In this document: in pieces, positions 9,140-64,000 of the stretch
Numbering within the stretch: position 1 is the stretch's first letter
Layout: each line of letters opens with the position of its first letter
Source: Seison nebaliae
Taxonomy: Eukaryota
Length of the DNA: 64,000 bases
Direction of reading: 5' to 3'
Assembly: GCA_023231475.1 (NCBI GenBank)
Contig: JALJEE010001258.1
Span: 1-64,000 of the forward strand
Notes under the pieces: model-generated
Databases searched by the model: none
The model's input: the letters and a program-made list of their open reading frames with translations, nothing else
Told to the model about the DNA's origin: nothing
Translations under genes and position numbers: made by a program

Positions 9140-9172
<33 letters not shown>

Positions 9173-10171
9173 AATAATTTAAATAATTTTAATAATCAAA
9201 AATCAAATATTTCCAATGATAATAATTCATTAACATTATCAACAACATCAACTCTCACTAAATCAATAATCAATAACAACAACAACAACAATAATAATAA
9301 TAATAATAATAATAATTTAAATAATGAAAATCAATCGATATCATCAGTCGATACGACGGATGGTGCCGAAAGTTTCTCTCTCATGTCTTTCGAGAGGATT
9401 TATGCGGAAATGTTTCCCGATAAGAAATGTCTGGTAAAGTCGGCAGATCAATTGATTTCTCGTCTCCATATCCTCCCACAACAATCGATATTGATTAATA
9501 CGAATTTGGCGATCATTCTCCGATATCGATCGATGAGAATGAAAGACGCGAATATCAAGATGAATTTCGAGTCGTTGATTGACGAGTCGAATATTCGCTT
9601 CCTCAACATCCAATCGGCTAAGCGAATATTGGAGAATTCATTGAATGAAATATTTTTTCCATATCGGACACTCACCACCATTCCCTCCGTCGACAATTGT
9701 CTAGAAGAGGAAGAAGATGAAGTGAAACGAATGAATGTCATCGATTTCGTTTGGAACGATAATTTCTCTTGTCTCATCGATCTGATGAGAAGTTCGATGA
9801 GATTCCAAACGAGTCCATCATTCCTCCAAAACGAATCATTAATGGAAAAGAATGAAAAGAATAAAAAAGAAGATAATTTCACCAATTTATCATTGAAGAA
9901 TAATGTGGAGAGGAGAGTTCTTTTTCGTAATCTCTCCGCTAATCATCGATGTAATGACGTGATTTGTATGAAAGGTGAAACGGCAGTTATTCGAGCGAAA
10001 TTCTCTTATGGTCCATTCGATTTATTTCCATTAACAAATGAGAATGTTCATTTATTCATAGCAAGAGGTGTCTCTAATACTTGTTCTTCTACCACCTCTC
10101 TTATATCATCGAAACGATCATCTTTCCTCTCATCTAACACATTTCCAAAAGATCTCAACAACAACAACAAC

Positions 10172-10210
<39 letters not shown>

Positions 10211-19700: not shown

Positions 19701-22101
19701 AAATGAAGTTAAATTTCTTTATTTTAATTTAAACACGATAAATTAATTAAAAATTAATTAATTAACTTAAACAGTCAATTGGAAGAGAATGAGACATATG
19801 AATTATCTGTATGTAATTCATATCGTTGTTCTGATATGACACAATTAATAGGAAATATTCCATCAGTTAAAGGTTTTCAAAATAATTTTCAAAATATTTT
19901 TCATTTAAAATTTGATTTTGTAGAAAGGGTAAAGGAACCAATGAATGGAAATGAGGAAAGTGCGATAAATATCGATGATCAAGTGCCGTTATTGGTGCAG
20001 AATGTTGAGATGAATATCATGAACGAGAAAGACTTTCCCCAAACCAACGTGCAATTGTGGTGGAGTATGTTGAAGAATGGAAACGAATTATATGGAACTC
20101 GAAGTCGAATACGATTCGGTATCGATAACCACATTTGTGAGAACGTCGACAAATGGAACAATGAGACATGGAACGATCAGAACTCTTTTGATTTGGGCGA
20201 TCGAATTTACAATAACATTATCATTCCACTTTCCATATATCTGCAGAAATCGGCCATTTTCAATCCAGTTTGCACCGCCATCATTCTGAGAACGGAACGA
20301 TTATCAGATAAACATTTATCTTCCGATTATTCCACCGCGACCATCACATATGATGGGAAGATCGAAAAACGGTTTTTTTCCACCATTCCCAATCGACAAT
20401 TACCAGCCGTTACCACCACCACTGCAACCACCACCCAAATCACCAACACTCAATCCTCAACAATGTCGATGAATTTGTTGAAGAATCAATATTACTATTA
20501 TATCGGTTCATAATTTCCTTCATCATTTCCATCATTTTCCTTTTTAGATGGTATTCGTTTGAATGAAGTCGCCATCACCAATCAGACGAATGACGCATTC
20601 GAAGTGACGTGGATGACGAACGATCAAGTAAGAGATCAATACCAAATGGCCATTTATGATAAAGTGAAAGATCATTTCGATGGTTTTCATTTGACCGTCA
20701 GAAAATTGAAAGAACTTCAAGACGCCAATCCACTTTACACCAAACGATTCGCTCCCGACCAATTCAGTACTTGGATCAGGTTTTCATTATCTTTTTTGAT
20801 AATAATTTGTTTTAAATTTAAATTTTTCTTTCAATTTCCAGTACAGCAAATACGTCGGCAAATGATATTTTGGAAGTTCAAGTCAATAATTATGGAACTC
20901 TCCCAAACAACGAAACGATTATTAGTCATATTCATGGGAAAGTTTATCATATCACATCGAACATGATCGACGAAAACGGAAATGAAGAAGAAATAAAAGA
21001 AGACAATAACGGCGACAATTTACTTTCCTCGTTTCTTTTTTTTTGAAAATTTTAAAAACTTTATTTTCATTCTCAGAACTTCGACGATCACTACTCGAAG
21101 TAGCGCCAAAACGAATTTACCAAATATCGGAATAATAACCGTCAGCAAATCGCCAATTATCATCAGTACTACAACGACCACAATGATGATAATGACATCA
21201 TCAACACAAGCAAATACTGTAACAACAACAACACAAATTACTATGGGAATAACAACAACGCGTGTTACTAGTAGTCAAACAACGAGAGATACTTCAATTA
21301 GTCCTTCAACTATTACGAATTCGAATATTAATAATATTTCGGATAATGGAAATGAGATAAAAGTGGAAGATAAAAATTCAATTAAACTTCGAGTAGAAGA
21401 CGATTTGATTAATGATCCTCAATTGACATGGGATTTCGATATCAATCAATATTTGAAAGAAAATTTAAAGAATGTTGATAAAGAGATCGATTATGATGGT
21501 AATTATGATTATAATAAAGAGATAAATTCATTTGAATTGAAAATTGATAATAACTATTTTTATTTGCAACCCGATAATCATCAATTCCCGTTGCCACCAA
21601 CCAACCAATTGTGGACTCCACTCGAGACACATAACACGAATTTGCGAATAAAACCCACAATGAAATTAGTTTATTTACTCGATCAGATTCCAAAAGATGT
21701 TTATTCTCCTATCAACTATCTTCCCAATAATGTGCCAATTCGATTGGATTACGCTAAGCCTAATAATTTATCCGTTTCTACTCATCGCGAATTCTACGTA
21801 CTCAATTGGGAGGACGAGAGAAGAGGAATGAAATCTGATTCTGTTCTCGTCACGTTATTGGAATTGGAACGACAAACGGATAATTGTCCGGAGAGACCGA
21901 ACCTTCAAAATTCTCCAAAATTCACCAGATACCAATCGAATGTTAATGAGAAATATTTTTTGATTGATCATTTCGATGAGAAGAAATGTAATTATTTTTC
22001 CATAACGAACGAAAACCATCGAAATGCTCAATATTCAATTGAATCCGATTACCAAATGATTTCATCACCTGAACATTATCAAACGGAAATCGTCACAACT
22101 T

Positions 22102-22134
<33 letters not shown>

Positions 22135-22135
22135 T

Positions 22136-22185
<50 letters not shown>

Positions 22186-24346
22186 ATATTACTACTACAA
22201 CTACGACATCTATTGAAACGACGACAGAAAATTCGGAAAAGGAACCATTGGAAAAGTTGAGCATTCGATCAATTCAGTTGAAGGAAACTGATGATTCATT
22301 GAACGTTGAATGGACGGTGAGTAACGAGTATTTAATTCCTCTCTAATTTCCCTCCCTAATTACCTTTCTTTTCAGATGAATGATATGGAAATGTTTTCCA
22401 ACTCCTCCGACATGTACTCGAAAGTTGAACTTATCAACTCCAATAACAAGAAAGTTGTTCATGAAAGAAACATTCCTAATACACGAAACTCGTATGATGT
22501 GAGATGGGAAGACGTGATCGATCCGGAAACAAAAGAATTGCCTAACCCTTATCAATTATTGGCGGTACAATTGACACTGATGGCGAAGGGAAAGTCAGGA
22601 AGTCAACAAAAGAAATTCTATCAAATTTCAAATTCATTATACGAAAAATTGAAATTACGTTATCAAACTACTACAACAAGTACAAGTACAAATAGTAGGT
22701 TTTCGATAACTGAATCACATCCATTCATTACCACCATAACGACGACGATGGGTGTGGCAATAAATATTCCACTTTATGGTGAGAATGAGAGAGATATTCG
22801 ATTAGATTCCAACGATGTTATTGACACTGTCGAATTGACAGTAATTTCGTCGAATTTGCGCTCAAACATTCTCTCCGACGTCAAAGTCGAATGGAAAGTC
22901 ATTTTTCAAATTTGAATTTAAAAATTGAAAATCATCTTTTAATCATCGTTGCAGGAATTGAAGGACATCTATCAAGGACTAAATTTGGATATGGCGACGA
23001 ACGATCTCCAAATGGAATTTCGAGCACGACCAACCAATTACAGTTGGTTGACGAACGGAATGACTCGGACGTTTAGGAAACGATTAAATGAATCACAATC
23101 GATTTTGAAACAAGTTCCTGATAATATGACATATTTATTAGGAATGCGATTCTCCCCCAAAAATGCGAATGTTATAACGAACAAATATGATTGGAGTAAA
23201 GAGATAGCATTCACTAAGAAGGATTCGAAATTGGTGATTGATAAAAATTCTGATGGTTTCGACGTCGCATCTCTCACACCATTATTCGTCATTCTTGGAC
23301 TGTTGTTGTTAATTGTGACGATAATTGTCTGTTTTCAATCGGCAACTATTCGAAGACGATTTCCCAAACTCACCAAACGTACGACGTCGTGGGCGAGCAC
23401 ATCAGAATCGTCGTTATCGACTCAATTGGAAGTGAGAAAGATAAATAAAAATAACGAGAAATATGCGAAGGCTCATCTTCCTGATTATGTGGATTATGCG
23501 AAGGAGAATGTCCGTACGAAAAAATTTACATCTCATCCATTATCTAAGAACGAGATTGTTCATCAAACGGCGATGGAAACGAGAAGAGGAAAAACTTCGA
23601 AGAATTCTGATGATTTCGATGTCTCGTCAATCGACGACGACGAATATGACGATTATAATGGAATTAAATTCAATAACAAGAAAAAAAAGAGACGAAATAA
23701 ACATCAGAAAGAGAAGATTTATACTTTATCTCCAATCACTCCAAATGACAACAACAACAACAACAACAATAATAATCAGATAAAGAATGAACTCGATGAC
23801 GATCCAGAACTTTATTCGAGTACGGGAAAATATTCGAATTATTTCGAGACGAATGAAAAAAATAATAAATCGTCCAATTCGAATACTCTCACCAATTCGT
23901 CGTATGCAAATCCGTTGCAAACGATACAAATCAGAAAACATTCTCAATCTTTATCCAATGATGATGTGGCGGAGAAGAAAACGGTCGTTACATCATTCGA
24001 TCTCTCCGAAGACGATGTCTCACCAAACAAGTTTCCCGTATTCGGTGCTAACGACTTCTATATTAACCAACGAACATTGGAACGAGAAGATGACGAGAAA
24101 TTATCGGTGGAATCACTTCAATATGGTCCGTTGACGGAAGTATTCACAGCCAACGTTCCTGTTGTCAATATCAAAGATCAGATGTATGCTGCTCTCCCCG
24201 TCACCACAACTGAATGGATGGATATGGATAAGAAGCAACTCTCATCCGCCAATACCAATACCAGTTATGGAGATGAGATTGGAAAGATTCCTCAGACATT
24301 ATCCTTCGAACAATGGCAACAATTGCAACGATCGAAAAGAAGTTGA
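16733..24346 (+). CDS. Large single-pass Ig-superfamily receptor/adhesion protein: signal peptide, several Ig domains, FN3-like domains alternating with Thr-rich stalks, TM, long cytoplasmic tail; ~2275 aa
   Basis: Manual 16-exon model: 16733-17378, 17423-17677, 17726-17893, 17948-18079, 18131-18281, 18326-19089, 19157-19426, 19474-19538, 19586-19707, 19775-19872, 19924-20505, 20548-20779, 20842-21030, 21077-22316, 22376-22897, 22955-24346 (6828 nt, open frame). Ig motifs: GERIELTC, GDSIIIDC, NIYLNCLPP..VRWMKDG..NGTLII..DSGRYSCRAIN. TM LFVILGLLLLIVTIIVCF. Confidence 0.8.
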
Positions 24347-24995: not shown

Positions 24996-26780
24996 TTAGA
25001 AGAATCGATTCATCATTTTCGTGACGATATTCAAATGATTATCCGTTATCATTGTGGTGGTGGGTGAATAAAAGATGACAGCCATAATTCCGATACCGAT
25101 AACAGACGCCATTGCCCATGATGCTGGTCGATTGATGAAGGAGATTGTATGTTTTCTCACCGTCAATGTCCCTGATGTTTTGGCATGATTATTATTATTA
25201 TTTGAATTTATTCCACTTCTCTCGTCTAACATCTTCTTTCTCACACTCCAATTATCCAGCATTCCATCGAACGTCGAGGGTGGAGCGGCAGCGAAAATTT
25301 CCAAAGTCTTCTCGAACAATTGTGGGAGATTTGTCGAACCTGTCAATCGACGTAATGTGGCATGGAGAGTGACGAAATCGTCGTTTTCCAACACTTTCTC
25401 CCGCTCCAACACAATGATGCCCACACACATATATATGATAGTTTTCGGATGTTTGGCTGCCAAGAGAAATTCGAAAATTTGCTGACAATAATTTAATGAG
25501 TCGATATCGTGACACATCCAAGTGACGAGCCAAGACACGGCAAAATTGGCCGTTTCGTGCTGAGAGAGATAAAGACGTTCTGCCAATTCCTCGTCCACTT
25601 CATTCAATAACGGTACGATAAATCCCAATAATTTTTGTGCTTCCGTCATCGTCTCTGCCATATAATCATCGAAATGATGTAATGTGAGAGATTGAAGGAA
25701 GTTGATGAGTTCATTGTCTAATTTGATCATTGATCGATCGTCATTTGATTGATTAGTCTGATGAACAATTTGATCGAATAGGAAAGTGAGAACGAATGTG
25801 AAAATGATATCATGAAATCCTTGATAATAATGAAGATGTTTATTATTGTCCAATATCCACAAAATGATATTTCTCGTTTCGTTTATAAGGAAATTGCCGA
25901 TTTTCTCTTTATCTTCCGTCGTCATCATCATATGAGGAAAAAACGATTCGTTGAATGTGGAATTGAGTCGTTTTCCTAATCGATTGACATCAAGTGTAAT
26001 TTGATTAAAATAAGAATTCTGTTTCAATTCTTCTTCATTCACAAACATCGAATGTCGATGTTGTGGGATGGGTTCATTCGAATTTCTTAATCCTTCTTCA
26101 AATCCATATGAATTTGTCATATTTCCTTTTCTCTGTCTCAAATAATTCTCATTATGTTTCTCCAATGTCCTCATTCTCATACGACTATTAAACCGTTCAG
26201 TTGACATCTCATTCTTCTCATCATTTGATGATTCATCATTTGTGATTGTTGTGGTAAGTGTCGAATCGACATCATTAATGAAACTGGAACTATCTTCCGA
26301 AATTGAATTTTCCGTCCCGTACAAACCACGAATGACCCGTCGCCAACAATCTCGCCGATATTTCTGTCCCATGGACGTGATAGGCCAAATTCGGTCGCCC
26401 GCGTTTTGAGTGCCCAATAACGGATTGAGGAAGATCATTCGCAATTCCTCCAACGTCAAATTCGTTATATAATCGAATTTCCGCTCGTCAATACATTTGT
26501 TGATTGAGCAAATGAATTTCGTCTTTTTCAAACGTTTTATCAATTTCTTCAATTCGATTTCGATCTCTAACGATCGTTTCTCACTCTGATCCAACACATT
26601 GCCACTATTCACCAAATTACTAATTGTTGGCGATGTGATCGACGACGAACTGAACGTCGAATTGGAGAGATTATCCAAAATCGGAATATTTTCCGGTGTC
26701 GACGATTCTCGCGCCACTATTGGCCTCAATTTCCCATCGACTTTTTGCGGTCGTCGCAATCGAACACCTGAAGTATCCAT
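24996..26780 (-). CDS. TBC1D20: TBC1 domain family member 20-like Rab GAP, intronless, 594 aa
   Basis: QITLDVNR (arginine-finger motif), HLHYYQGFHDI (glutamine finger), FAVSWLVTWMCHDI, and a C-terminal hydrophobic anchor WAMASVIGIGIMAVIFY typical of TBC1D20. Confidence 0.88.
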   Translation of the reverse strand: MDTSGVRLRRPQKVDGKLRPIVARESSTPENIPILDNLSNSTFSSSSITSPTISNLVNSGNVLDQSEKRSLEIEIELKKLIKRLKKTKFICSINKCIDERKFDYITNLTLEELRMIFLNPLLGTQNAGDRIWPITSMGQKYRRDCWRRVIRGLYGTENSISEDSSSFINDVDSTLTTTITNDESSNDEKNEMSTERFNSRMRMRTLEKHNENYLRQRKGNMTNSYGFEEGLRNSNEPIPQHRHSMFVNEEELKQNSYFNQITLDVNRLGKRLNSTFNESFFPHMMMTTEDKEKIGNFLINETRNIILWILDNNKHLHYYQGFHDIIFTFVLTFLFDQIVHQTNQSNDDRSMIKLDNELINFLQSLTLHHFDDYMAETMTEAQKLLGFIVPLLNEVDEELAERLYLSQHETANFAVSWLVTWMCHDIDSLNYCQQIFEFLLAAKHPKTIIYMCVGIIVLEREKVLENDDFVTLHATLRRLTGSTNLPQLFEKTLEIFAAAPPSTFDGMLDNWSVRKKMLDERSGINSNNNNNHAKTSGTLTVRKHTISFINRPASWAMASVIGIGIMAVIFYSPTTTMITDNHLNIVTKMMNRFF

Positions 26781-27566
26781 GAGTTAAATTCACGAAATTT
26801 ATTCACTTCACTTTGATTCAAACAATCAACATTGAAGAATTGAACTAAAAATTCACAGAAAGAAAAAACTAAAAGAAAATGGAAAAATCACTTCCAATTC
26901 TTTCCACACAAATAAAATATTCAAAAATTTTTTCAATTTTATTCACTCTTATATACAACCGACATAGCTACGTAGTTAAACGTATCTCCATTATTTTCAT
27001 TAATCATTCTTCTCCTCTTTCTCACTTATTCTTCTCATTCTTTCTCTCAAATTACTTTTCTCAATTTTTAGCCTTTCTCTCCCATCCTCCAACCATCTTT
27101 TCTTCCAATATTTCCATTTAATTCTTCCATCATATAACCATCTTTTCTCTCACAGTATTCTTTCTTAAAAAACGCTTATCAGTCGATAAAATCTATTTAG
27201 AATGGAAATTAAAAAATTTAATGATAATTTAAAAATGAAAATTTTTTAAATTATTTTTAATATTTAAAGATAATTTTAAATAAAAAATTGTAAAATTTTT
27301 AATTAAAATAGAAAAGTTTTATGATAATGTTTTATGGAGAGTAGAAAAATTTTATTGATAATCTTTTATGGAGAATTGAAAAATAGAATGATAATTTTAT
27401 ACGGATAATTAAATAAATAGAATGATAAAGTTTTGGAGAATGGGTCTTTAGGAGAGAGAAATAGAACTGATCAGTTATCTTTATTCTAGAATCGTGACAG
27501 AAAGTGAATTCTCTTTATGAATGAAAATGAGTAGAATAAAATGTTTATTGGATGAAACGAGCCATA

Positions 27567-47336: not shown

Positions 47337-48216
47337 GAAAAACAATATGATATTTCTGATGATACTAAATAACATGAATAATTCTTCTACCCTCAACAAC
47401 CTCCCAATCAGAGGAGAGAGGAGAAGAAATTTATTTATATATTTAATCAGTAAATTTTCATAATTAAACAAAATAGAATTGAAGGACTTTCATTGTCTAA
47501 TAGTTCATCATGCTCATTATCATCGTGTCTTATGGTATTGGAGGGGAAAAAACCTCCGTTTAATCGAGACGAATAGAACTATTAGAGAATTGAGTAGAGA
47601 ATTGAGGTTTCCACATTCATCCACTTCCTCTCCTCAATTCTTCCGATATTTCCAAATGTCTCTCAACAATTTCTCCTTTTGAAATTCTTTCAAAATTTCA
47701 AATTCCAATTTATGTACTACCCTTATGTTTTACTAGTTTTATTCCAATTTTCTTTTTAAAAACTAGTTCATCGTTTGGTCATGTGTGTTGTGTGTCGTTT
47801 CAGCCGTCATGAATTCTCACGACGAAATCGATAATTTGTATAATTCTATTTGTTCCTTTACGTTTCCTTCTCACATGAATAACCTCGTCAAATGTTCTTC
47901 TACAAAATTCTACAACAACAATAATAATAACAATAATAATAACAATAATAATAATAATAATAACGTTTTATCAATTAAATTTGAATTAAATATTTTTCAT
48001 TCCAATTGAATGATACCCAATGGACAAATGAATTGATCCGATTCCATTCTAAATTGTTGACTTGTCAAATTGAATAAATCTTGTTTAGCCTAATAATATA
48101 TTTAATTATTTCCGGTTTGTTTCCGTTCGTTCAGATCTGTCTGAAAAAGAGTGATCATTTGAATTGCATGAGCAGAAATCAGAGAACGTTCGTCATTAAA
48201 TTCTCTTTGGATTTGG

Positions 48217-51200
48217 ATGTCATACACTTCGAACGACAATGGCTTCCTCCACATCGGAGACATCATCACTCTCTATGGTAATGCTGACCATTCTGGTTAC
48301 ATTTATACGATGGGGTTTCTTTCTCTTTCGTTTGTTTTCTCCTCAAATTTATTTTCATAGTATTATTGATGATCGAATGTTCATCAGGAAGAATGATGAT
48401 GTGGGAAATGAAGAGGATTTGTCCTCCGATCGTTTCAGAGGTTTCCATCCAAATTTCCATTTAATTCAAATTTCGTCATGAAATGAATCATTTACAGATT
48501 GTTTATTCCGCATTTGTAATTGTTACAAGTATAATGCACAAAAGCAATATTGGCATGCATTGCAACAACGGAAGGAAGCATGTCAATATCGACCTCATTT
48601 AGAAATGCCGATGGACGACTGGTCGCATCGTACGCACAAATACACCGATCGATTCATTCGGAAATTGAAGGTTTGTTACACCATTTTATGATTGTGGAGA
48701 ATTGTCCAATTAACATATCATTCTCGTATTTGAGAGCGAGTACGAAAAATAAATTATTAAAAAAAACGAGTTTGTCTCGTTGAAATTGAAAATAGAAGAA
48801 AAAAAATAATGAAAAAGATTTTTGAAATTTGAGGGAAATAATTTCAAATCCAAATGGATTTCGATGAAAATTTTCGCTTTTTTCCCATTTTTTCACTTCG
48901 ATTTTACGACGACTATAAATTGAGCGTTGTATTAGGCTTTCTTTGCATTTCATTAATCCATTCATTTTATTCGACATTCATTAGTTCCGTTATTCCATTT
49001 CATTCATCATGTCCCTCAATTTCAATGTGATCGAATCTACTCCGGACTATATGAACAATGAATCGTCTTCTTCTACTTTTACCGCCACACCCAACCAATT
49101 GTCGATGTCTCCTATTTTTGACGTGAACGATGAATTTCGTTGTCTTACTCGTAGCTCGAACAAATGTGGTACTTCTATTCAATCTAGTCTCACGACTAAT
49201 GGTAAAATTCATTTGAATTCCAATTCGAATATTCTCAAAAGTGGTTATGTCGAACAACAGAATAACAATCATTCCGTTTTCAATTTCGATATGTCAATTA
49301 CCAACTCCAAGTCATCGATTGAAAGTAAGATTTCTGATCTCTATCTGACATCATTGACGGATAAGTCGGATTTAAGTAACGACTCTCACACCACGAAAAA
49401 CCATCACATCATTGGAGCGTATGATCAATCGCCCGATAGCGAACCAGAATTTAAATTAGCCGATTTAAATGACGACACTTCATTAATTGAAGTATGCAGT
49501 CAGAATAAATTCCCAGTTCGTTTTGAACTTCTCACGACCTTCTAATTCTTCTCCGTCTTCTAGGGATGTTTAGAGAGCGACCAACCTTTCCGACTCGCAC
49601 ACCGACAGACACAAATGTCCTGCGAAAGTTTTACCGTTTGTTCTCCCCCGGCTAACCAGGTAACCATCGAATCCACCAACCAAATGAACCGGGTTGGTGA
49701 TGAAGTGAGTTTGAAGGAATTTGAAACGAATCATTCCTTCAACTCCGTCACCGAGTTCTATGGTTCGCCGCAGACTTGTGTTCTACCCTCATCATTTCCA
49801 TCGTCGTCCGGTGATAGTGAATTCATTAAAGATAAGAACTTATCCAATTCTAAAGAGTGTCAGGCCATTCTCTCATTGAAAAGGGACATGGATCAACTCT
49901 CCGATTCATCCGACAACGAATCGATTTCAGGGAAAACTGGCGCCGTTTACGTACTCGAAGTTTGTGGTACTCTCCCCGTCCTTTGCGATTTATTACGAGA
50001 TCGTCGAATCCATTTTACTGCGGATAGATGTCATGATAATGTGAGACGAGTCATCGCTACTCCTCAATTCAAGACGATATCGACACAGACATCAGATTGA
50101 TATGATTCTCGATCATTATTGAACGAAATTGATGAATGAAATTAAATAATAATAATAATAATAATTAAATTTAAATAATTCGATTTTTAATGAATTTTTC
50201 CATTTTTATTAAATTTTTCGATGGATTCGATTCGAACATTTTCTTTTTCTATTTAATTTCTTTTTTACCTAAGAAATATTAAATGATATTAGTTCGTATA
50301 ATTGTAGATGAGAAATTTAATAATTTTGTGCTCGAAGAAATTTCAATGAAATTTCCAATGTTTCCCGGATGAATATTAATAAGAGGATTATCTCCTCTTT
50401 CCACGAGTGCTTCCTCATCAACACCGATTACATGAAACACCATCTCTTAAGAACACCATCGGAAGATGGTAGTAAGAAGGAATTCGAATAAAATTAATCA
50501 ATAAAAATACATTAGCATCAGCCCTCGAACACTATTACATGTGACATAATTTCCCGTCGAATTATTTATGTTTTATGTCACTTATTTTTAGAAGGAGGGA
50601 GAGCACGCTTCCTGGGAGAATTCGTAGTCGGAAAAGTATGTTATAGAATTATAATTCTTTCGTGTCATTAATCGGAGTGTAAGAAGAAATATGTTCGAAC
50701 TGTGAACTTGTTTTCAATTACAACAAATAAAAATCAATATTCGACTTTCCTCCCCTCATTCCCACCACTTCTCAACGACTCTGCACAATTTTCCCGCTCA
50801 ACATTTCTCTGTAGTTATCCTCAGCTGAATTGATGACAACTTCACACCAATCAACTCTACTTCAAACTTCATTTCCTTCCTTCATATAAATACCTGAACA
50901 TCTCCCACTTTCTCCTCCACATTCCCCCTTAATTTTCCATTCGTTCACAACTCGTTACCGTCTGTGATGGTTCGAATGATCTGTTGGGGGAAATCATTTC
51001 GAATTTTCCAGAATTTTTTTTTGAAAAATTCATAAATAATGTTGGAGAAAATGAAATTTTTGATTGATGAATATCAAAATTATTGACTGATTGTGGTAGA
51101 TCGATGGTGATGATAATGATATTAATTAGGATTATAAATATTTCATGATTTATCTCACATCAGTGTCGTGAGAATGAAGATGTTGAAGAGAAGTTGTTTT

Positions 51201-54200
51201 CTCCAATCGCTGTTAGTTTTATTAAGATTAAGAATGGATTGTGAGAACGATCGTTTTAAAATCGATTTTCTTCCTTTCTCTCAATCGAATATTCATCGAA
51301 TTGAGAAAGTTTTTTTTTCTTTCCGAAGTATCAATTGGATGTACGAGAAGTGTAAGCAAGAGTAAAATTGAAGGTTATAAGCCGGAATTTATCGAATTTT
51401 CTATGGTGGCTCATTGGGAGAAGTTTTATAATATTCCTGGGAATATTTCTTATAATAGACATTGTCCCCCCAATATGTGTTGGGGGAATGGAGGGCGGGA
51501 GGTAGAGCAAAGAGTTATTTTGTTAATGATAATGATGTTGTTTAATTTACTTTTTTTAATATTCAACTTATCTCGTCGCAATAGGAACGATGCATTTCTT
51601 CTTCTTCTTTTTCTTCTTCTTCTTGTTCCCTTTTCTTCAACAAATGAATTTTTCTTCCATTTACACTTTATTCCATACCCGACATGGAGACCGATGTAGA
51701 ACGTTACTCAACTCGCTACATTGGACGCAAATATTTCATTTGTCACCTTATTCTCCAATATCACTCTCACAACAATTCTGAAAAAGAAAGATCGACATCC
51801 ATTGTACGATTATCGTATTTGTTCGGCTTCTGTTGGATGATGAGCAAATATCCTATTTTATTTGTTTCCTTCGAAATATCATTATCGGATCGACGGAAAT
51901 GAGATATAATCATATCATTCCTGGGAACATCCTTCTAACATCCTCTCCCCTAACTAAACTTTTCTGTTAATTGGAACGATTTCATATCGATCCATTTCGT
52001 CACCAACATCATTCGACGGCCATTTCCATGATTATTCAGGAATCATAAAAAATATTTCAATTTTTTTATTTTCGTTCAGTTTCCTAAAATTATGATTGAT
52101 AATTTATGAATTTTCAAATTCCATTTAAATTTAGTTTAACCGGTTGTTTTGATGAGAATTTATGAATTTAAAATTTATGATAAAAAAATGGCTGGAAGAA
52201 GAAATTTCGAGGGATTAACACGGAGATTACTATGATGACATCCATTCTTCTATTCTGGAGATATCTCAGAATTTTCATGTACTTTTCAAAGTTGATCGTC
52301 GTGTGAAACGAAGCCCGAAATGGACAGTTTTGGCTAATAAGGAAATATTAGGGTTGTTGTTGTTGTTGTCGTTGTTGGATTGTTGGTTAGTTTGAAATTT
52401 GGTTGCTCGACAGAAATTGAATAGAGGAGGGGACGGAGAGAGGAAAGAATAATGTTAAGATTAATGTTGTAAGGACCATGAGATTTGTCATCATCCCAAT
52501 TGTCATCTCATTCATATTAATAAATGGAACGACAAGTTTCGTTATAAGATTATGTTTCAGTGTCACCATATTAACTCATGACATTAACTCGTTATTGGAT
52601 GTTGTATCTCTCTTGTCATAATCAATGGAAGAGAGGAATGGTATGGACGAATTGTAATTTAGATCAGTCCTTCCTTCTCCCTCAATTATAGATCACTTCA
52701 GGCTATATGCACTGAATCTTTAACAAAGCAAAAGGGAAACGAGAAAGATGATGATGATGATGATGATGATGATGATACGATGACTACCACTACTAGTCAT
52801 GTTAGTTGGCATTCGAATAGTCAATCATTTGCCTTTTCTCAAATGTCGTTTCCTTCCTTTCCTCGCCTTCCTCCCCAATAGTCGATACTTTATTATAAAA
52901 TATTAGACTGTCGTAGAATCGAGTGAAAAGTCGTAGAATAAGATGTAAAGTCGATATTGTCTCTTCGTCCTTCGTCTCTTAATTGCTTCTGTCTCCCGCA
53001 TAGTTTTCCTTTGGTGCGATTTTTACCTTCTTATTTTTCTTCCTTTAATTCTCATCATCCATTCATCACTGCATTATGTCAACACGTTTGCTTCATCTGC
53101 TACAACAATATTTTCCTGCATGATTAATTACTTATAGCTTATTACACAGATGTATCCGTGTAGACATGTGTGAGATTGTGTGTGGTGGTGTGCGCGCGCG
53201 TGTGTGTGCATGAGTGCGAATTGGTGTGTCGAGGGGAATATGTTGGTACGAGTGTATCCGTTTATGTTCACTTTATTTCTTCTTTATTATTCCCATATTA
53301 TTCCAAAAGATATTGATAGGAAATATTAACAATTCATTTTTATTCCATCTATTCATCACCATCTTGTGCCGGGCAACTAATGTTGTGCACATTATATTAG
53401 ATTCTCAGATTCTCTCAAATATTCAATTCATCTTCTTCTCTCCAATTAATATCCGAATGAATCCTCTTCCCATTCTCTTCTTTCTGCTCCCACTCCAACA
53501 CTCTCCCCCAACATATTCAATGAATTTATTAGAATTTCAATTTTATCCTTCTTTCCAAAAAGAAAAAACGATGTCAAACCGTATTCGAATCAGATGAACA
53601 TGTATCACACTCCAATTCTGTTCTCGTTCTCCACCTTCCAATTATTCCTATTAACATGCCGATGTATCAAATCATTATTACGATGATTTCCCATTCAATT
53701 TGAGTCATGTAATCGGAATTCGCTCCCAACGAAAACTTTCACACTTCTCTTCCATTCCTCCTCCCATTCATTCTCCTTTCCATGTCCATCGATGGAGAAA
53801 AAGAAACTTCATTTCTACAATTCACCTTATGAAGATTCCGTTTGTTCATTTGCTCCCAAATAATCTCGACAATCAAATTGAAATGCTTCTCCAATTATTT
53901 TATTATCGGGGAATGAGAGGCAAATGTCAAAGAGACCGAACTCGTCAATCTGGTGTGGGAAACCAGGAGGAAATATGTTTTCGCATTTTCTTTAAATTCT
54001 CGTTCGTTCTTTCCACTAATCCCTCTCAAATGACCCAAATACTCTTCCCCTCATGTTCCTACTACGAACGATAATTGCACTTCCTTCCCTCGTTCGTTAA
54101 TCTGATAGTCAGGCCGGTTGACGGCTGACGGGGAGGGGAGACGTCGAGCTGAATAACAAAGAGTACACAGAATATGCGAGGACATCGTGATAAGGAGGAA

Positions 54201-55034
54201 ATTCCAATGGAAACGATTGATAAGTGAGAGAAGAATGTTTACAATATTAGTTGACGTCAGAATTTTTGTATTTTTCTTCTTATTGTTGCCCGCCCGAACG
54301 GCGAGAAAGAGAGAACAGAAGAAGGTGATAAATACAATGTTTATATTGTTGTTAATAATCATCATTATGATGATCGATGTTATATCAATGATTTTCAAAT
54401 TTATTGTTGACTAATAAGAAGTGACATCTATTGTTCATATCAATTCTTCTTCTTTCTTTCCATCATATTCCATCATTCATTTCATTGTTTTCAGTCGTTG
54501 GATGATTGTTGAGCGAATGTGCACAATCAGTGCACAAAAATTCCTGCTACCATATATTATGGAATATCTTCTGCCGATAATTCTCATAATGATAATCATG
54601 ATGGTGATGATGATGAGAGTGTTATTGGGGGAGAGCAAGAAAGGAAGAGAAAGAGCAAAAAATGAACCATCTTATTTGAAGAGAATTTCGAATCTTTTCT
54701 TAATCGTCATTTGATCTACGTTCTCATCATTAAGTCATTTCTCCTTTCTTCCCGTCAACACTCGATAGTTTGTGCATATTGTGAAGTGTCTTCCCACCCT
54801 AATATTCTTTCGCTTCATTCTAACTGCCAATTTTCATTCATCAATTCCATTGCCATAAAGACGATGACTATATTGATAATTATCATTAAATTTTATATGT
54901 GTTGACAAAAAATAAATTCTTTACCGTCACATATCATCTCCAAACAGGAATTGATGTTTGACTACGTATACTATCGATTATATATCGATACGTTTCCACT
55001 CGAACTGATCGGACTGATATCGAACAGTTCACAA

Positions 55035-55065
<31 letters not shown>

Positions 55066-58000
55066 TTAATAAGTTTAACAAATTATTCTTGTTCACCAGC
55101 ACTTTTCTTGGAAAGAATTTAAGAAGAAGAAATTCCATAAGTGTTATGTTATAGGGAGAACAGGATTTCTACTAAATAAGCAAGGAGAATCGTTCATTTT
55201 CTTGCCCAGTCGTTGCCAGTTTTAGCTGTGGAGAGGAGAAGTAATTGATGTCAAATAAAGTTTATTGAATTCAAGTTAGTTGTAATGAGACAGAATTTCC
55301 ACTGTTATTTCTCTCCAGCCAATAATCTAATTTGGCATTGATACTGAAAATGTTGTATAAGTCGCTGGTAATTAGGAGGGAGCACGAATTGGTCGTCGTG
55401 TGAGTGAGGAGAAATGTCAGAGATGGAAGTGAAGGAATAATGTTATTAATGGAAAGATTAAGTTTGATAACGATCATCAAACTATCATCTTATTATACGG
55501 CATATTAGTGATAACAATAATATTATTATTAGTCTGAATGGAATGTCGGTGGTGGTTGTTCGTTATTTTTGTTATGATGTCTGACTCAATGGGGAATGGT
55601 TTGAAGGAAATCGGGAAAATAATTATTTGGAATATTTTTAAATGATAATCATCGATTAATTTCATGTTAGTCGTCGCGAGTCAATTGATAGAGTTGTGCG
55701 AGTCGTTCATATATTTTCTTATTATTCATCCTAACATTCTCTCCCCCCTTATGTTACTTGCTATTTTTGGTTGATTTGCAATTGCCTGCTCTCGTACAAT
55801 TGCGCTAATTCGGCATTATAATTGCATAAACATATTCATCATAAATATCTTATAATAAAGCAGATTTCCTAATAAATACACTAACAAGAAGAAGAAGAAT
55901 AACAACAACAACAACTGTTGGAGTATAGGACCAATCGGAGTTTTGTGTACATGAAGAAGAGGAGGAAGAGGAAAAAGATGAGGAATATTTTAATACGTAT
56001 AAAGAATAAGGGGACAATACTGGGGGGTCGCAGTAACCGACAAACAAGAACGACAAAGAGGGGAAAAGAAGACAAGAAGGAAAAATCCAAAAGATTCATG
56101 AGAGAACAGTTGAGTTGTCGGAGTGGGCAGGATGGTGGGTATTGTAAGGGGGAAGGATATCACCAAATTAGTTAAATGAGAAATTAGACTCAACTCCATT
56201 AATCTCATTAATTAGTTGAGAAAGTGCAACAGTGAAAATTATAGATCAATAAGTACGAACATTATAGTCATCTTCATAATCGATAACATCCGAACAGGAA
56301 TGATTAATGAAAGATTCTCGTCCGAAATGACGAAAAGTAGCTGATAAATGGAAGAAAAAGAAGAATTACTGAGAACATACTTAATCTTTCCATTTCGGCA
56401 TTGGCCTGGAAGTAATTGTGTAATTTTATCTAATATCATCGATCTAGACAGAAGGAAACGATATGGAAGCTAATTATCATCCCTGCCATTATAGAGTGCG
56501 AACGGTCTTCTATTTTCAGTAGTCCGAAAGATAAGTTGTGGAAGATAAAGGTTAGAGAAAGGAGATTGTGCAACTTCCACTACGCTCGACGGTTGGCCGC
56601 TCATAATCTTAACTCGATAAAGATCGATCCTTCAACCTCCTCCAATCCTACGTCGTCCACTGATGTGATTTGTTCGCTTCTTCTTTCCTTTTTGTACTTT
56701 AACAACTACGAGATTAACTTTCAATGTTCCATGAATGTGCAATTATGTGTGTGCGTGCGTGTGTGTATGTGTATATGTATATTCGGATGTTCATTTGAAT
56801 GATTTCATTGGAATCATTGAGACATTGAGGTGAGTGTATACGCGATTTTATCATTCTACACACAAGATAAACATTCGGGTGGATGTTGGTGGCGATGTAT
56901 GTGGAACATTATCTGATGAAGAATATGTAAATATTATCAGGAAATTATTCGCTGTAATCATGCTCCCCCTCCAACAAAAAAAATAATAACGAACAATCAC
57001 CTCATTAACGTTCGGAATAAAATTCCTATAAAAATCAATCATCTTTCTCCTTTTCTTTCTAATGCAACTTACAACAATGTAGCAATAATTTCGGTATATC
57101 ATCCATCCCCCCTTCCTCACCAACCTCCCCAACAAACACATAAATTATATTCGTGCTGATATTCAACACCCATTTAGGTTAAGTTAGAAATTCTCCATCA
57201 TCATCATCATCATTATCATCGCCCAGAGGGATAGACCTTCAATATAATTCATACTAGAATTATATCTATCTATCTCCGATTGGTGTTAATATAATCATGA
57301 TTATGATGATGATGATGATGATGATAATAATAATGATGATAATGATGATCTTCATTGACAATGATAACGTTTAGAGACGCAAGACCATCACATGAAAATT
57401 CGACAGTGACTTATTTACTTTTATTTACTTATCATCTCATAAATTATTTTAAACTTTCCATCATTCGTCAACCTTCTGATTCGTTTGCCCATGAGCACTA
57501 CACTGATGTTTATCGCTTGCTCTTACACTCATCGAATTTCTGATGAAGGAGAATTGGCGGTTATCCACCAGTGATGGTGGTCATGATAGTGCAAAAATTA
57601 AAGTTCAATAAATCATTCAAAAAGAAGATTTTGATTCTTATTAGGCGATATGTCAAATGTTATGGTATGGTGACAGTGTATTATACGAATTGTTTACAAT
57701 TGTCATGTTTGACTAATTCCTTCAATTTCTCATCGTCTAATCCTTCATTTCCATTTCTATGTTATGCTCGATAAGAAAGTTGTAAGAAATTTTTAATTTG
57801 TTTGTCAACTTTCCTCATCTCGAACATCGGTCGGGAGTGATGAGTTCCTATTTATTTCTCTTATCTGCTCCTACGACTTGGTCGATGGGGTGAAGGGGGC
57901 AGTCGGTGGAGGGGGCATTGGGAGTGGAACACTAGGGAATAATTAACAGTGAAAATGATTTGCTTTCTCTTCTGTCAAGAAGGAATGATTGAGAGGAATT

Positions 58001-61000
58001 GTTAGGGAAGTGGCGAGAAGGGAATGTGTTAACATCCAATTTGTGAGATGAGCACAAACGAACAATAATAAAAATGGAAAAAATCGGATTGAGTTCGTTC
58101 GTTTCAATTTGGTTTGTCATCGTTTATGTTTCATTAAATACACTCTTGTTCTCCTCAGATATTTTTTCATTTTTTTCTTTTTTTCTCTTTTTTTTTTCCT
58201 TTTCGTTCCATCTAACGTCGTCATTACTCGTCGTTATTCCCAATTACTTTTCTCATATTTTCCTTCCATCACAATAAGACGATTCTTTATCATACATTTT
58301 ATTATTCACACTTCTCTCCTCACCAGTACGAGACACGAGCGGTACCGTTACTTTTTCGATTACCCAATCGGCATATCTCATTATCATACGCTCCCCCCAC
58401 TACTTAAGTTAGTTAGTTTCTGGTAATTTATTTTTAAATCTTTTTTTATGATTCTTATCTATCATTCTTCATCTCTCCGACTCATGTCATTACAGCGAAC
58501 ATCTTCTTATCAACTGATGGCGAGTTGTTACCTTGAGTGGGAGATATCTCACGAAATTGAGTCTTTATTCTCTTTATTAATTCTCCATTAATTCCAACGA
58601 ATGTGTAATCGGGAGAAGATCCGAAAATCTTTCAATCTATTCCTATTAATCTGAAAAAAGTGAATGTGACAATGTGCGCATGAAATGGAAAAATTAGAAA
58701 TTCCTTCTACCATTTCCCCACCTTTTCTCCCCAGTCACATGCTCTTCCAAGCTACGCCATTTCTTCTTTTCTAACATCTTGTCTCCTGATTATGTCCATA
58801 CGTTATTGACAGATGTGTGTAGTCGTTGCCTCTTCTACTTGGTGATGGTGGAGCGAATGTCGTTGTCTCTTCTACTTCTGATGGAGAATGTCGTTGTCAG
58901 TTTTGTTTTTGTTTCGGGAGGGGAGATGGGAGAAGCAGAAGATAAAATACATTTACAAATTAATTATCATCGTCCTTTCATTTGGGTGTAGAGTTAATTA
59001 ATTAATTCAAACCGAATGAACATTCGCGACCATCTTATGGAAAAGATGACAGATATTCTCCTCAATCGCTTTATTACTCTGCCATAATCTGCCCAGTCTC
59101 TTCAAATATCAGTGTCTCTCCAATTAAATGAGACAATTGTATGTTCTTCTTCCAAACGTCACTATCGTCATCCATGTCAACATGTACGACTTCGCTCCAA
59201 CACTTCATTCATTAGAGGAATCGAATAATTCTATGCAAATATTCTGCTCGTCCTCTCCCCACACACATTCCACTCTGTGACATATGTAGATAACAGTGTT
59301 TAATTCTTCTCTTCATTTTTTCATATTCGCACTACTGAAGGAAAACATCAACTCTTATCTACTTCATTCCCTCCCTTATTCGCTCATTGTTTCTTTTTCT
59401 TTTTGGGATATTCCTCCACACCTCAAACATGTGCACATTCAGTGCACATTATTTTTCTCTTGTCATTGTTGTCGTTCGTCTTCCCATTCTCTTTCGGAAG
59501 ACGGAGGAATATAATTGAAACATCTAATAAGGCTTCACCACATCATTCAACTTCTCCTCCCAATAATACCTTCTCGAATGGTCGGAGAAAATTTACTTTC
59601 TGGTGCTCCTACACAATTTTTCATACCCATCTAATATTCTTATCAATGCAATATAATTCCAATTATTTTTCTCTAATTTCTCATATCATACGACGGTTAA
59701 GAAATGATATTCTTCTCATTTCCATTCCTAAAGCACCATCTTCCAATACCATCACCAATACCATCACCAATACCGTCACTAATACCATCACATTCAAATG
59801 TCCATCCGTTCTCTTAATGATGATGATCATCATCATGATGATTGAGAGAAGAAACCTCTTAATAAAATTTATGTGATTTTGATTTGATGATTTGAATGAA
59901 TTCCAGGAAAATTGTCATGAGTCAATTATTCGGATTATGATTCCTGTGCGAAAGAACCGAAAGCACATTTTCAATTTGTTTCATGAAAAGCGAATGTAAT
60001 TTAAGGAAAGAATTTCTCCCATACTCGTTCGTTGTCTAATCGACTTCACTCAATCCGATTCTTCATATTCTATTTCATTCCATTTTATTTTCTCTTTTTT
60101 GGTATTTGCCTTTTTTGTTGTAATTTCCGCCCGCACACCTCTTTCACTCGTGTCCTTGATTTGGGAGAGAAGACAGATAATTTTATCCCAACTCATTGGC
60201 AGTTTGTTTGAAAATAATCGATTTTATCTAATTGTTTTTTTTTAATTTTCTTCCTCCTCTTCACCCCTGCAAATCAACCAACCAAACCAATACAGATAGA
60301 TAGATAGTCAGCTAGAGAGTTAGGTAGATATTGTGATCAAGACAATTGTTTGATCCCAACACTTTGGTATACATGAAATATTCGCCATCATATCTATAAG
60401 ATCAACCGACTCATTCTCATCAGCTACACAAAAAAACCTTAATTGAATTCATTCGAAAATTGAACATTTGACGGTCGAAAGGTAAATGTCGGCTGTGTCG
60501 AAAACCAGCCAAGATACCATTGGGACTGGCGGATCACGGAGACGTGATATCAAACTAACCGATTTCTACTTATGTAAAGCGTTGGGAGAAGGTTCGTTCG
60601 GCAAAGTCATTCTGGCTTACCATCGCCAAACGTTAAGGTTTTATGCAATTAAAGTGCTCAGCAAGAAACGGATTGTCAAATCGCGACAAATCGATCACAC
60701 CCTAAATGAACGTCGTTTACTCAATTACGTAAATCATCCATTCGTCGTTAAAATCAATTTCACTTTCAAAGACAATTCCAATCTGTATATCGCTTTGGAA
60801 TATTTGTCGGGAGGAGATCTATTCCATTATTTGCGGAAGGAGGTCCGATTCAAAGAGCAGAAATCTCGATTTTATGCGGCGCAAGTATTTCTCGCTTTCG
60901 ACTACCTTCATACACGCCACATCGTCTATCGGGATTTGAAGCCCGAAAATATCATGATCGATTCGGACGGATATTTGAAAATTGTCGATTTCGGTTTCGC

Positions 61001-64000
61001 CAAAGAAGTGCAGGGCAGAACGTGGACGTTGTGTGGAACGCCCGATTATTTAGCGCCGGAAATCATCCAGAATAAACCGTATAATAAAGCGGTGGATTGG
61101 TGGGCGTTCGGCATTCTCGTTTGGGAGATGTGTCAGGGCGAACCACCGTTCAGCGGTTCGAATCATATGGAATTGTATGAGAATATCGTCAAATGTGAGC
61201 CTCATTATCCCTCTCGCTTCTCGAGCGAATTGAAGGACTTGCTGAAGAACATTGTCATTGTCGATACAACGAAACGTTACGGTTGTCTTCGACGCGGCAG
61301 TGAAGACATCCGAGCACATGCCTGGTTCAAAGACGTCCATTGGAAGACGATTTATAATCGGCAGGAAAAGGCTCCTTATGTGCCGCGAATAAAATACAAG
61401 GCCGAACCCGATCTCTATAAGGGCCAAGAGATCACGCTGAGAATATCTGCTACCAATTTGTACGAAGACGAATTCAAAGATTTTTAAACGAATCCATCAA
61501 TTCCTCCAAAATCATCCCAGTGATTATATAGAAAAGGAATTCAAATTCATTTCATAAGAAAACCGTAAAAAATAGTAATCACCAGAAGATGAAAAATGAT
61601 GAAGAAAGACAAAAACTGAAACTGTCATCACAAAAAAATAATTGAACTTTCTAATTGTTTTAATGTTCCTCCCAAAAATGTGTTACTCTATAATGATGTC
61701 ACTCTTATTTTGATTATCATTTCTTTCTACATGTAAAAATATCGATAGCTTTCATTTCGTTCTCGTAAAAACACTTCTTCTTTTTCAAATAGTTTCTTTT
61801 CCTTCACACACACACACACACCACCACCACCACTTAACCAAATCCTTTCCATGTGGTCCTTTGAACATAATTCAAATTTCTTCACCATTACCATCACCAT
61901 TACCATCACGATCAACATTATGATAATCATCCATTTGACATCAGGTCGAAAATATATTTAATGAAATCATTGTCTTTCCGCCAATATCCATTCACGTCGG
62001 TTCGAAGTGTGTCCAATTTGGACGATTCGATTTCTATGAGAAATTCTCCCCATCTTTTTCACCGTCACTGGAAAGAAAGAGAGAGAGAGAGTGTTGGTGG
62101 CGAGTCGACTGAAATTGCCGAATTCCCTTCAAACCGATTACCCACCATAACAAAAAAAAACTTATTCTTCATAACCATTTTTCCAAATTGCGTTAATGTG
62201 CTCACAATATTCTTTCATCATATTATTATTCTCATTCTCCAAACCATCACCATTACCACCAATAACTACCACCACTTCATCTATGAACATGTGGGGATTG
62301 GTTCCATCCTTCCTCTTCTCCTCCTGCCCCCCTTCCCCTACTTAAAACACCATTCTTTCAATATTTGTAATAATATATATTTCTACGCGTAAATCTAAGT
62401 GAAATTTGTATCGTCTCATTCGTCTCATTCGTTAAGTGATGACGGTAAATGGGACAGATGAATAGGAATGATATATTACAAAAATCGATTGACCAAACCT
62501 TTCAACTTTTTGCTCAAATTATCAAATGAAAACTCTTTTATTTTCTTTGCTTAACTTATATTATACTCATTTATTATTATCTTCTTCTCCACGGGACGAA
62601 AACCAGACGAGATGAAACGATTCATTTCACTCTCAAGTTCCAATGTTGTACTTATTCACAATAACTTTTCCTCCTCCTAACAACTCCATTCGAGAAATCG
62701 ATTTCAAACGTATCATCTCAATGAAACACCCTTCATAGAATGGGAAAGGAATGATAATTTCTCTTCTATCCTTTCCCAATAGCCAAACAGAAGTGAATGA
62801 AATCATATCATTATGATTATGTCTACAACTGTTGCTCTTCATTCTTTCTCACACTTAGATTATAGACGGGAGACTTGAATATATGCATCCTATATACCTA
62901 TATATTTACGTTGACATCTATATCTATTTTAACATTTTACGAATTCTGGTCAAAAAATAAACGATTCTGTACCAAAACGAACAACAATTACTTTTCTTCG
63001 CTTTCTCTCGAATTCAGATAGAGAAAGTCGAATTCTTTTATAATTTATTAATAAATTTTTTAAAGATTTAATTCATTCGTATTATCATTTCCACACAATT
63101 TCAACACAATATTAACACAATATTAACACAATATTTATTCGATAAGAAACCATTTAAAAATTAACTAGATATGATAAGAGAAACAGATATAATAATTTCC
63201 AAATACTTTGCTAAGATTCAAATATCTCAAAAATTACAATTCAATTTTAATTCATTTAAAAAAAAATGAATTAAATTTAGCGAAAATTCTCATAAACTTA
63301 AGTCGAGTTCTATGGGAACTGTTGGAGAAAATATTACCAAAGAAATAAAATAAATAAATTTAGAGTTAAATAAAATCAAATATTCGGTGAATATAATAAT
63401 ATGAATATTTTATGGAAATTTAATGGAAAAACTTTTATTTTGTAGCAAATCGGAGATATGGAGAAGAAGCAGAATAAAGAGGAAGATATCAATATGGCAG
63501 GAACGGCGTTACAATACGGATGTGCTATTCAAGTTTAGTTAGATTAGATTGATGGAATAAATTTCAAATTATTTTCCAGTTATATCACGTGAAGAGTCAT
63601 CGATTTTTGACGATTCACAAGCATCTCTCAGCGCAACAAGAGAAGAATGCGATGAGAGTGACACTCGACCGATGTGGAAATGATGGGTCATGGGTTCGGA
63701 TAGAGCCCTATTTCAAAATCCGTCGATTTGGAGATTATGTGTTGGAGGGAGATCGAGTTCTTTTGCGACCGATGAACAGTTCTCAATCATTACATGTGAG
63801 TAAGAGAGAATCATTGACCGATCCATATTGTCATGAAGTGAATTGTTTCCCCGAGACGTCTCGATTAACCGATTGGAAGTTGAATGTTTTTATGAATTTT
63901 AAGGACAACATGTCGGACGTGTTGAAAGGAGGTAGTGTCGTTCGTTTGTTTCATGCGGAACAGGAGAAGTTTCTCACCTGTGGCAAATATAAGAAAGATG
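48217..64000 (+). CDS. ITPR: Inositol 1,4,5-trisphosphate receptor, 5' part (continues beyond the window)
   Basis: Not in the ORF track. Exons 48217-48314, 48361-48440, 48498-48670, 63446-63532, 63580->64000 join in frame: MSYTSNDNGFLHIGDIITLY..TMGIIDDR..FRDCLFRIC..YNAQKQYW..IRKLK|QIGDMEKKQN..LQYGCAIQ|LYHVKSHRFLTI..EKNAMRVTLDRCGNDGSW..LKGGSVVRLFHAEQEKFLTC, collinear with the IP3R suppressor/MIR domains. Confidence 0.93.
49009..50100 (+). CDS. Uncharacterised Ser-rich protein, ~347 aa, two exons, nested in ITPR intron 3
   Basis: Two long ORFs (49009-49515, 49564-50100) joined in frame by a 48-nt GTTCGT..TAG intron that contains a stop codon. No domain recognised. Confidence 0.65.
60486..61487 (+). 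CDS. PKA-C: cAMP-dependent protein kinase catalytic subunit (PKA-C-like), intronless, 333 aa, nested in ITPR intron 3
   Basis: LGEGSFGKV, YAIKVL, QIDHTLNERR, FKDNSNLY, RFYAAQV, YRDLKPEN, DFGFAKEVQGRTWTLCGTPDYLAPEII, YNKAVDWWA, C-terminal hydrophobic motif EFKDF. Confidence 0.93.
   Translation: MSAVSKTSQDTIGTGGSRRRDIKLTDFYLCKALGEGSFGKVILAYHRQTLRFYAIKVLSKKRIVKSRQIDHTLNERRLLNYVNHPFVVKINFTFKDNSNLYIALEYLSGGDLFHYLRKEVRFKEQKSRFYAAQVFLAFDYLHTRHIVYRDLKPENIMIDSDGYLKIVDFGFAKEVQGRTWTLCGTPDYLAPEIIQNKPYNKAVDWWAFGILVWEMCQGEPPFSGSNHMELYENIVKCEPHYPSRFSSELKDLLKNIVIVDTTKRYGCLRRGSEDIRAHAWFKDVHWKTIYNRQEKAPYVPRIKYKAEPDLYKGQEITLRISATNLYEDEFKDF

Follow-up and report, generated by a model that had tools for sequence, protein, structure and literature searches.

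Genes nested within the introns of other genes are well described in Drosophila melanogaster, in which 71% are reported to lie antisense to their host and about 29% on the same strand (PMC3814207, PMC5174743). According to the former report, 72.5% of the same-strand nested genes are single-exon, those with several exons carry a median of one intron, 58% reach their expression peak in testis, and the expression of nested genes and their hosts shows a weaker correlation than that of neighbours on the chromosome and one no higher than that of random pairs (PMC3814207). For mammals, nested genes are described as favouring long 5' introns, as occurring in both orientations in broadly equal numbers and as being less conserved (PMC11694760).

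Here, we analyzed 64,000 nucleotides of DNA (hereafter the window; contig JALJEE010001258.1, positions 1 to 64,000, forward strand) from Seison nebaliae, a marine seisonid rotifer whose genome is described as having compact genes and whose biology includes separate sexes and two diverged lineages within the species (PMC8351084). A first-pass annotation had proposed that one IP3 receptor (IP3R) gene is split at 48670/63446 by a 14,775-nt gap holding two genes on the same strand, an orphan and a PKA catalytic subunit. No paper on the Seison IP3R locus or on its passengers was found in a search of main texts that lay largely outside the subscription journals. The features concerned are as follows.

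48217..48314, + strand: IP3R coding exon 1, from the ATG to a phase-2 junction within the Gly that aligns with G31 of rat ITPR1.
48361..48440, + strand: IP3R exon 2, ending in phase 1 within the Asp that aligns with D55.
48498..48670, + strand: IP3R exon 3, ending in phase 0, its last residue aligning with H93.
48671..63445, + strand: putative IP3R intron 3, 14,775 nt, with a donor matching U1 at 6 of 9 positions; the splice is predicted from the sequence.
49009..49515, + strand: orphan exon 1, 169 codons, Ser-rich.
49516..49563, + strand: orphan intron, 48 nt, phase 0, with a +5G +6T donor and a weak acceptor.
49564..50100, + strand: orphan exon 2, giving together with exon 1 a protein of 347 aa whose C-terminal part is under purifying selection.
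60486..61487, + strand: PKA-catalytic-subunit-like kinase, intronless and diverged, 333 aa (deposited model P0121).
63446..63532, + strand: IP3R exon 4, phase 0, containing the in-frame Met at 63458 at which the deposited model starts.
63580..64000, + strand: IP3R exon 5, continuing past the window end.

In this arrangement, the exons of the host lie on either side of the inner genes, collinear, in frame and on one strand. The locus is thereby like the same-strand nested genes described for Drosophila (Lee and Chang 2013; Assis 2016), which are short, intron-poor and fast-evolving and reside in long introns of large, conserved hosts, and the intron counts of the passengers (none in the kinase, one in the orphan) fit that class. 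Unlike in Drosophila, the background intron measures ∼57 nt, making the contrast larger, and two passengers share a single intron. The placement in a long 5' intron resembles the mammalian host/nested pairs (PMC11694760); mammalian introns, however, are long in general, and that catalogue is not limited to protein-coding pairs. Overall, the locus fits a known class of same-strand, intron-poor nested genes, and we regard it as real but ordinary.

The proposal of a single split gene was borne out by the reading frame. IP3R exons 1–5 form an open frame of 286 codons interrupted by introns of 46, 57, 14,775 and 47 nt, all of them GT-AG; the last base of exon 3 is 48670, where the donor reads AAG|GTTTGT, and TTTGTAG precedes the first base of exon 4 at 63446. 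In an alignment with 11 animal IP3Rs the Seison model is collinear with its relatives, and the long gap falls in phase 0 between the counterparts of rat H93 and H94. The PF08709 profile is tiled without overlap by exon 1 (profile positions 2–26), exon 3 (53–79) and the downstream model (96–213), the matches of exons 1 and 3 being weak (E 0.013 and 0.005) and under the curated cut-off. Using tblastn with eight IP3Rs and the model itself, we found in the window no further IP3R piece and no second copy of exons 1–3 or of exon 4.

The encoded protein comprises the domain set Ins145_P3_rec, MIR, RIH, RIH_assoc and Ion_trans (deposited model P0242 plus exons 1 and 3). When aligned to owl ITPR1 (P0243), it retains the GGGxGD pore filter together with R265, T267, R269 and two later basic motifs, which we take to be the IP3-binding residues. 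By its domains and key residues, the gene is thus an IP3 receptor (ITPR), and IP3R-type gating is predicted for it. Domain order, IP3-binding residues and pore filter are shared with animal IP3Rs, and the residues aligned to D34/R36 are kept within exons 1–3. In contrast, exons 2–3 are diverged from animal IP3Rs and carry an insertion of ∼15 residues: with 29% and 34% identity to owl ITPR1, exons 2 and 3 form the most diverged part of the N-terminus, whereas five of six other non-vertebrate animal IP3Rs reach 62–75% and 43–62% over the same exons; the sixth, from a fluke, resembles Seison.

The intron sites at D55 and H93 are common to Seison IP3R and human ITPR1. The human variant c.279+4_279+7del is reported to result in p.Asp55Alafs*11 (PMC11585489), and the human gene therefore has a donor at c.279. 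Such an outcome would be expected if an exon that extends from D55 to codon 93 were skipped, and this exon would have the boundaries of Seison exon 3. At the H93/H94 site, the Bugula IP3R model carries a 16-residue insert, beginning with V and ending with Q, like a read-through intron. Upstream of the Seison IP3R start, a frame opening with ATG and containing a run of Asn was observed together with two acceptor-like sites (47809–48009 and 47800–48135, + strand), possibly representing 5' UTR exons or an upstream ORF.

At 2901 aa, the Seison IP3R model as deposited takes the Met within exon 4 as its start and is without exons 1–3; joined to the upstream exons it reaches 3022 aa, a gain of 121 residues, and the deposited model likely lacks these first 121 residues. 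In the acanthocephalan Pomphorhynchus (P0245), the N-terminus and the remainder are present in one protein, and in Clonorchis an older IP3R model is cut at the same place, whereas the newer one has the N-terminus. Deletion of the suppressor domain, delimited as residues 1–223/225 (PMC10952845, PMC7939385), is reported to abolish Ca2+ release by IP3R1 (PMC12276195), so the channel probably needs exons 1–3. Because of the Pomphorhynchus N-terminus, the cut and complete Clonorchis models and the need for the suppressor domain, we read the exon-4 start as an annotation cut.

We next consider the gap itself. It measures 259 times the median short intron (57 nt), so that the scale given by the first-pass annotation (∼300 times the typical intron) stood while its figure was slightly high. 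The reference set consists of 21 hand-modelled introns from five genes, ranging from 46 to 211 nt and including only the first spinster intron. The mean U1 match of the donors was 3.65 of 9 positions for the 17 introns below 100 nt and 6.0 for the four introns of 159–211 nt, as compared to 6 for the long intron. Across 31686–40712 (Cdc14, AMPK) and in IP3R, short introns mostly carry degenerate GTT donors and the 159–211 nt introns stronger ones, which, on 21 introns, suggests a size-dependent donor code. The combination of +5G with +6T was, as previously pointed out, that of a minority, occurring in three of the 21 short donors. At the other end, the long-intron acceptor is matched in score by just nine of the 615 remaining AG sites of the gap (profile of 15 window acceptors) and reaches 3.3 bits, as compared to −4.2 bits for the acceptor of the orphan intron. 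With splice-site scores resting on 15–21 hand-modelled sites, and hence on small numbers, this pattern agrees with a long intron whose ends are the stronger sites and within which an inner acceptor is hidden.

Reading on through the exon 3 donor yields a predicted product of 123 aa. The TGA at 48689 and the AATAAA at 48748, to which a possible short intronic-polyadenylated product had been attributed, are both present; the gap, however, contains 22 AATAAA motifs, that is 1.49 per kb as compared to 1.39 per kb across the window, and the motif at 48748 is therefore not special. Intronic polyadenylation at this site and trans-splicing are possible, with no specific pointer to either, and the exon-1 read-through peptide was not found among deposited proteins. 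The search for recursive splicing proposed along with the earlier claim gave four YAG|GT sites in the gap, one of them within an orphan coding exon, and none was convincing. Outside the two nested genes, none of the 87 other stop-free frames of at least 50 codons in the gap appeared coding (best total, 7.4 bits). Rfam matches in the window were confined to two tRNAs, with none in the gap; these are tRNA-Glu genes on the + strand at 222–293 (anticodon CTC) and 501–572 (anticodon TTC).

Three further features of the gap are as follows:

50076..50350, no strand: AT-rich island at the orphan 3' end, resembling islands behind other window genes.
60479..60487, + strand: putative donor-like site with 7 of 9 U1 matches, a value reached by 8 of 680 gap GT sites, overlapping the kinase start codon.
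63026..63450, no strand: AT-rich island just ahead of exon 4, containing AATAAA at 63050, 63344, 63353 and 63369.

The second island may represent the kinase 3' end, an internal promoter or a plain intron end; its AATAAA cluster lies 76–101 nt ahead of the exon-4 acceptor, and the first AATAAA after the kinase is found 1.47 kb past the stop codon. Two further joins would be in frame: exon 3 with the second exon of the orphan, and the first exon of the orphan with exon 4, the latter being free of stops. These in-frame joins, the donor at the kinase ATG and the island before exon 4 were noticed post hoc, and phase-0 matches are common.

The orphan is identical to the deposited Seison nebaliae model SNEBB_008532 (KAI3385552.1), and a search with exon 2 gave 100% identity. 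In a leave-one-out coding model its reading frame scored +0.157 bits/codon and both alternative frames scored below zero; the range for eight further genes in this model was 0.145–0.30 bits/codon. Among 317 candidates of 313–2000 aa, the only relative recovered was the orphan itself, and searches gave no Pfam family, no solved relative at E 10 and no usable Atlas match. Folded as a single sequence, the last 76 residues of the orphan reached a pLDDT of 52. A possible likeness of the C-terminus to the SLX4 SBD was unsupported by Pfam and was dropped.

The best solved match of the kinase is PKA C-alpha (E 4e-115). It is 51–53% identical to nine animal PKA-C proteins, which are 74–90% identical among themselves; local identity was 53–57% for most matches listed. 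The catalytic motifs and the C-terminal FxxF are kept, whereas the N-terminal helix (A-helix) and the myristoyl glycine are absent, a further upstream coding exon being possible, and the FDDY stretch of the C-tail is altered. We take its signature motifs to be nearer to PKA-C than to PRKX. We regard the kinase as PKA-C-like and probably as an extra copy. Invertebrate PKA-C proteins are reported to be >77% identical to human C-alpha/C-beta and nine introns to be conserved in many animals (PMC3625193); the kinase falls below that mark, as measured against the nine animal proteins, and has none of the introns. In this respect it is like primate PRKACG and marsupial C-alpha-II, PKA-C-derived kinases without the nine ancestral introns, of which PRKACG is described as testis-only at the mRNA level (PMC3625193). 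The Seison kinase is nevertheless far more diverged than C-gamma (51–53% as compared to 82%; PMC3625193) and, unlike PRKACG and C-alpha-II, is without the N-terminal helix and lies inside a host gene.

An origin of the kinase by retroposition is possible. Since other long genes of the window, namely RdgB (∼1690 codons) and TBC (594 codons), are intronless too, the missing introns are a weak sign of it. These two genes lie at 6554–11638 (+, RdgB/PITM) and 24996–26783 (−, TBC), and the AMPK gene of the same window has 11 introns, a picture of patchy intron loss. Elsewhere in the window, two in-frame ORFs split by one stop codon (28934–30250, −; Dimer_Tnp_hAT) encode a hAT-type transposase and are probably a decayed transposon. 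A large multi-exon gene at 16727–24346 (+) encodes a Thr-rich membrane protein, Ig/fibronectin-like by eye, one ORF of which was tested and gave no Pfam match. Two small, divergently oriented genes at 41879–42529 (−; RAD51-paralog-like by eye) and 43161–43876 (+) surround an AT-rich island, and neither matched Pfam.

Assembled DNA contigs from runs of two studies were used to evaluate the physical linkage of these features. A single contig (47972/47974–52734; runs X2, X3 and X5) holds exons 1–3 and the orphan, and another (57356–64000; X2 and X3) the kinase and exons 4–5, the latter being split with overlap at ∼61650 in X5. The passengers are therefore physically tied to IP3R exons. The long pieces listed show no differing letters, the pieces being 23 of 365 and 16 of 341 rows. 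Breaks occur near 52735–52787, 55026–55074 and 57188–57355, all of them simple repeats and unbridged by the contigs listed, and the exact gap length rests on the source assembly. Split joints among the contig matches listed, with sides of 20–27 letters, are probably repeat noise; none of them corresponds to 48670–63446, a junction not to be expected in DNA.

Run X3 also yielded low-depth (2–3) diverged contigs, for which 40 of 61 differing places were listed: 8 in the orphan, 27 in the kinase and 5 in non-coding DNA, essentially from one contig per gene covering ∼140 nt of the orphan and ∼240 nt of the kinase. All eight orphan differences are synonymous and in third positions (chance 1.5e-4 for one named position), and the 27 listed kinase differences, in 26 codons, are synonymous as well, none changing a residue. 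Either a related lineage or a paralog may be the source of these contigs. The orphan and the kinase are both under purifying selection. The synonymous-only differences, the coding score of the orphan and the deposited models argue that both nested genes are real, in agreement with the claim of two + strand genes in the gap. Short non-coding matches of the diverged contigs were found at ∼50654–50726, 51826, 60339–60355 and 47441–47450, two of which precede the kinase and IP3R, and are possibly conserved regulatory elements or chance.

As both passengers lie on the strand of the single host gene, the IP3R pre-mRNA would, as first suggested, pass over them. The further suggestion that nesting links or mutually excludes the expression of channel and kinase, through shared transcription or intronic polyadenylation, found no such support, and we consider it very unlikely. 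In its favour, mammalian IP3R is reported to be phosphorylated by PKA (PMC8301844), nested-gene expression in mammals is described as able to alter host polyadenylation and isoforms (PMC11694760), and the kinase meets its first AATAAA far beyond its stop codon, with a cluster shortly before the exon-4 acceptor. However, alignment revealed no RRxS in Seison IP3R at the two vertebrate ITPR1 PKA-type positions, a region that aligns poorly and in which other sites are possible; the channel thus differs from vertebrate ITPR1. A review describes Drosophila IP3R, too, as being without PKA sites (PMC8301844). The kinase is also atypical, AATAAA occurs at background density, and the Drosophila nested pairs referred to above are correlated no more than random ones. 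The sole strict RRxS/T of the Seison channel lies just behind the pore filter, presumably beyond reach of a cytosolic kinase. Judged from these sequences, the link between kinase and channel would be a coincidence of names until tested.

Taken together, we consider it most likely that the gap is an ordinary cis-spliced long intron carrying two independent same-strand passengers. According to this model, two probably unrelated genes would have inserted, as is likely, into an ancient intron, and exon 3 would be joined to exon 4 by ordinary cis-splicing to give the 3022-residue receptor. Passing over the inner genes may be made easier for the spliceosome by the fairly strong donor and acceptor of the long intron and by the weak acceptor of the orphan. 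Each passenger likely has its own promoter, active in other cells, so that competition between the poly(A) sites of these genes and the transcription of IP3R would be rare; the male germ line would be the most likely place by analogy to Drosophila, and their expression in testis is suggested by this analogy only. The kinase itself would likely be a fast-evolving extra PKA-C copy, possibly a retrocopy, and not a dedicated regulator of this channel.

The start of the deposited model at the exon-4 Met, the AT-rich island ahead of exon 4, the stop-free in-frame join of orphan exon 1 (ending in phase 0) to exon 4, the donor-like site across the kinase ATG and the fast evolution of exons 2–3 would all agree with a main IP3R mRNA that starts in the gap, from an internal promoter or a nested first exon spliced to exon 4, exons 1–3 being minor or decaying. 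We regard this as unlikely, and equally unlikely that the receptor would thereby lose or replace its first 117 residues: exons 1–3 keep an open frame, canonical splice sites at human ITPR1 positions and the D34/R36 residues, the two Clonorchis models show annotation failing at this very spot, no in-frame ATG exists upstream of the donor-like site at 60482, and IP3R1 is silenced by loss of the suppressor domain. Distinctly unlikely, in our view, is a nested-gene switch in which orphan exon 1 and the donor at the kinase ATG serve as alternative IP3R 5' ends, the choice of promoter and splice site yielding the full channel, a channel with its suppressor replaced or cut, or the kinase.

The two halves could also belong to separate transcripts that are trans-spliced, or the downstream part could receive a spliced leader, as spliced-leader trans-splicing is reported for rotifers (PMC3795323) and both a stop and an AATAAA are met downstream of the exon-3 donor. 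This appears highly improbable, as the parts are ordered on one strand 14.8 kb apart and cis-splicing needs no extra steps; moreover, the 25 longest of 153 inverted repeats include none that would place long complementary arms close to the two splice sites, and spliced leaders were not found reported for Seison itself in the literature searched. That the locus reflects an assembly misjoin or two IP3R paralogs side by side seems barely credible. No contig among those listed covers the whole gap, with its three simple-repeat breaks; a random join, however, would not supply the missing N-terminal exons in the right order and phase, the two parts complement each other exactly, the long pieces listed match without differing letters, and both passengers remain between IP3R exons whatever the repeats do. 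Nor was a second Seison IP3R present among the 10 + 4 matches looked up, out of 150 listed, which together with the single copy in the window speaks against two different paralogs.

Overall, the cis-spliced long intron that we favour would mean that, in a genome whose introns measure ∼57 nt, one of 14.8 kb can nevertheless be removed across two same-strand genes, a splice predicted here from its exons. In-frame alternative joins to exon 4 are possible and speculative; if the nested genes gave the channel alternative 5' ends, or if its halves were trans-spliced, the locus would matter more. As it stands, and although Seison is hard to work with, the locus allows two questions to be put cleanly in an animal with short introns, namely how splice sites pair over a long range and how poly(A) sites are suppressed.
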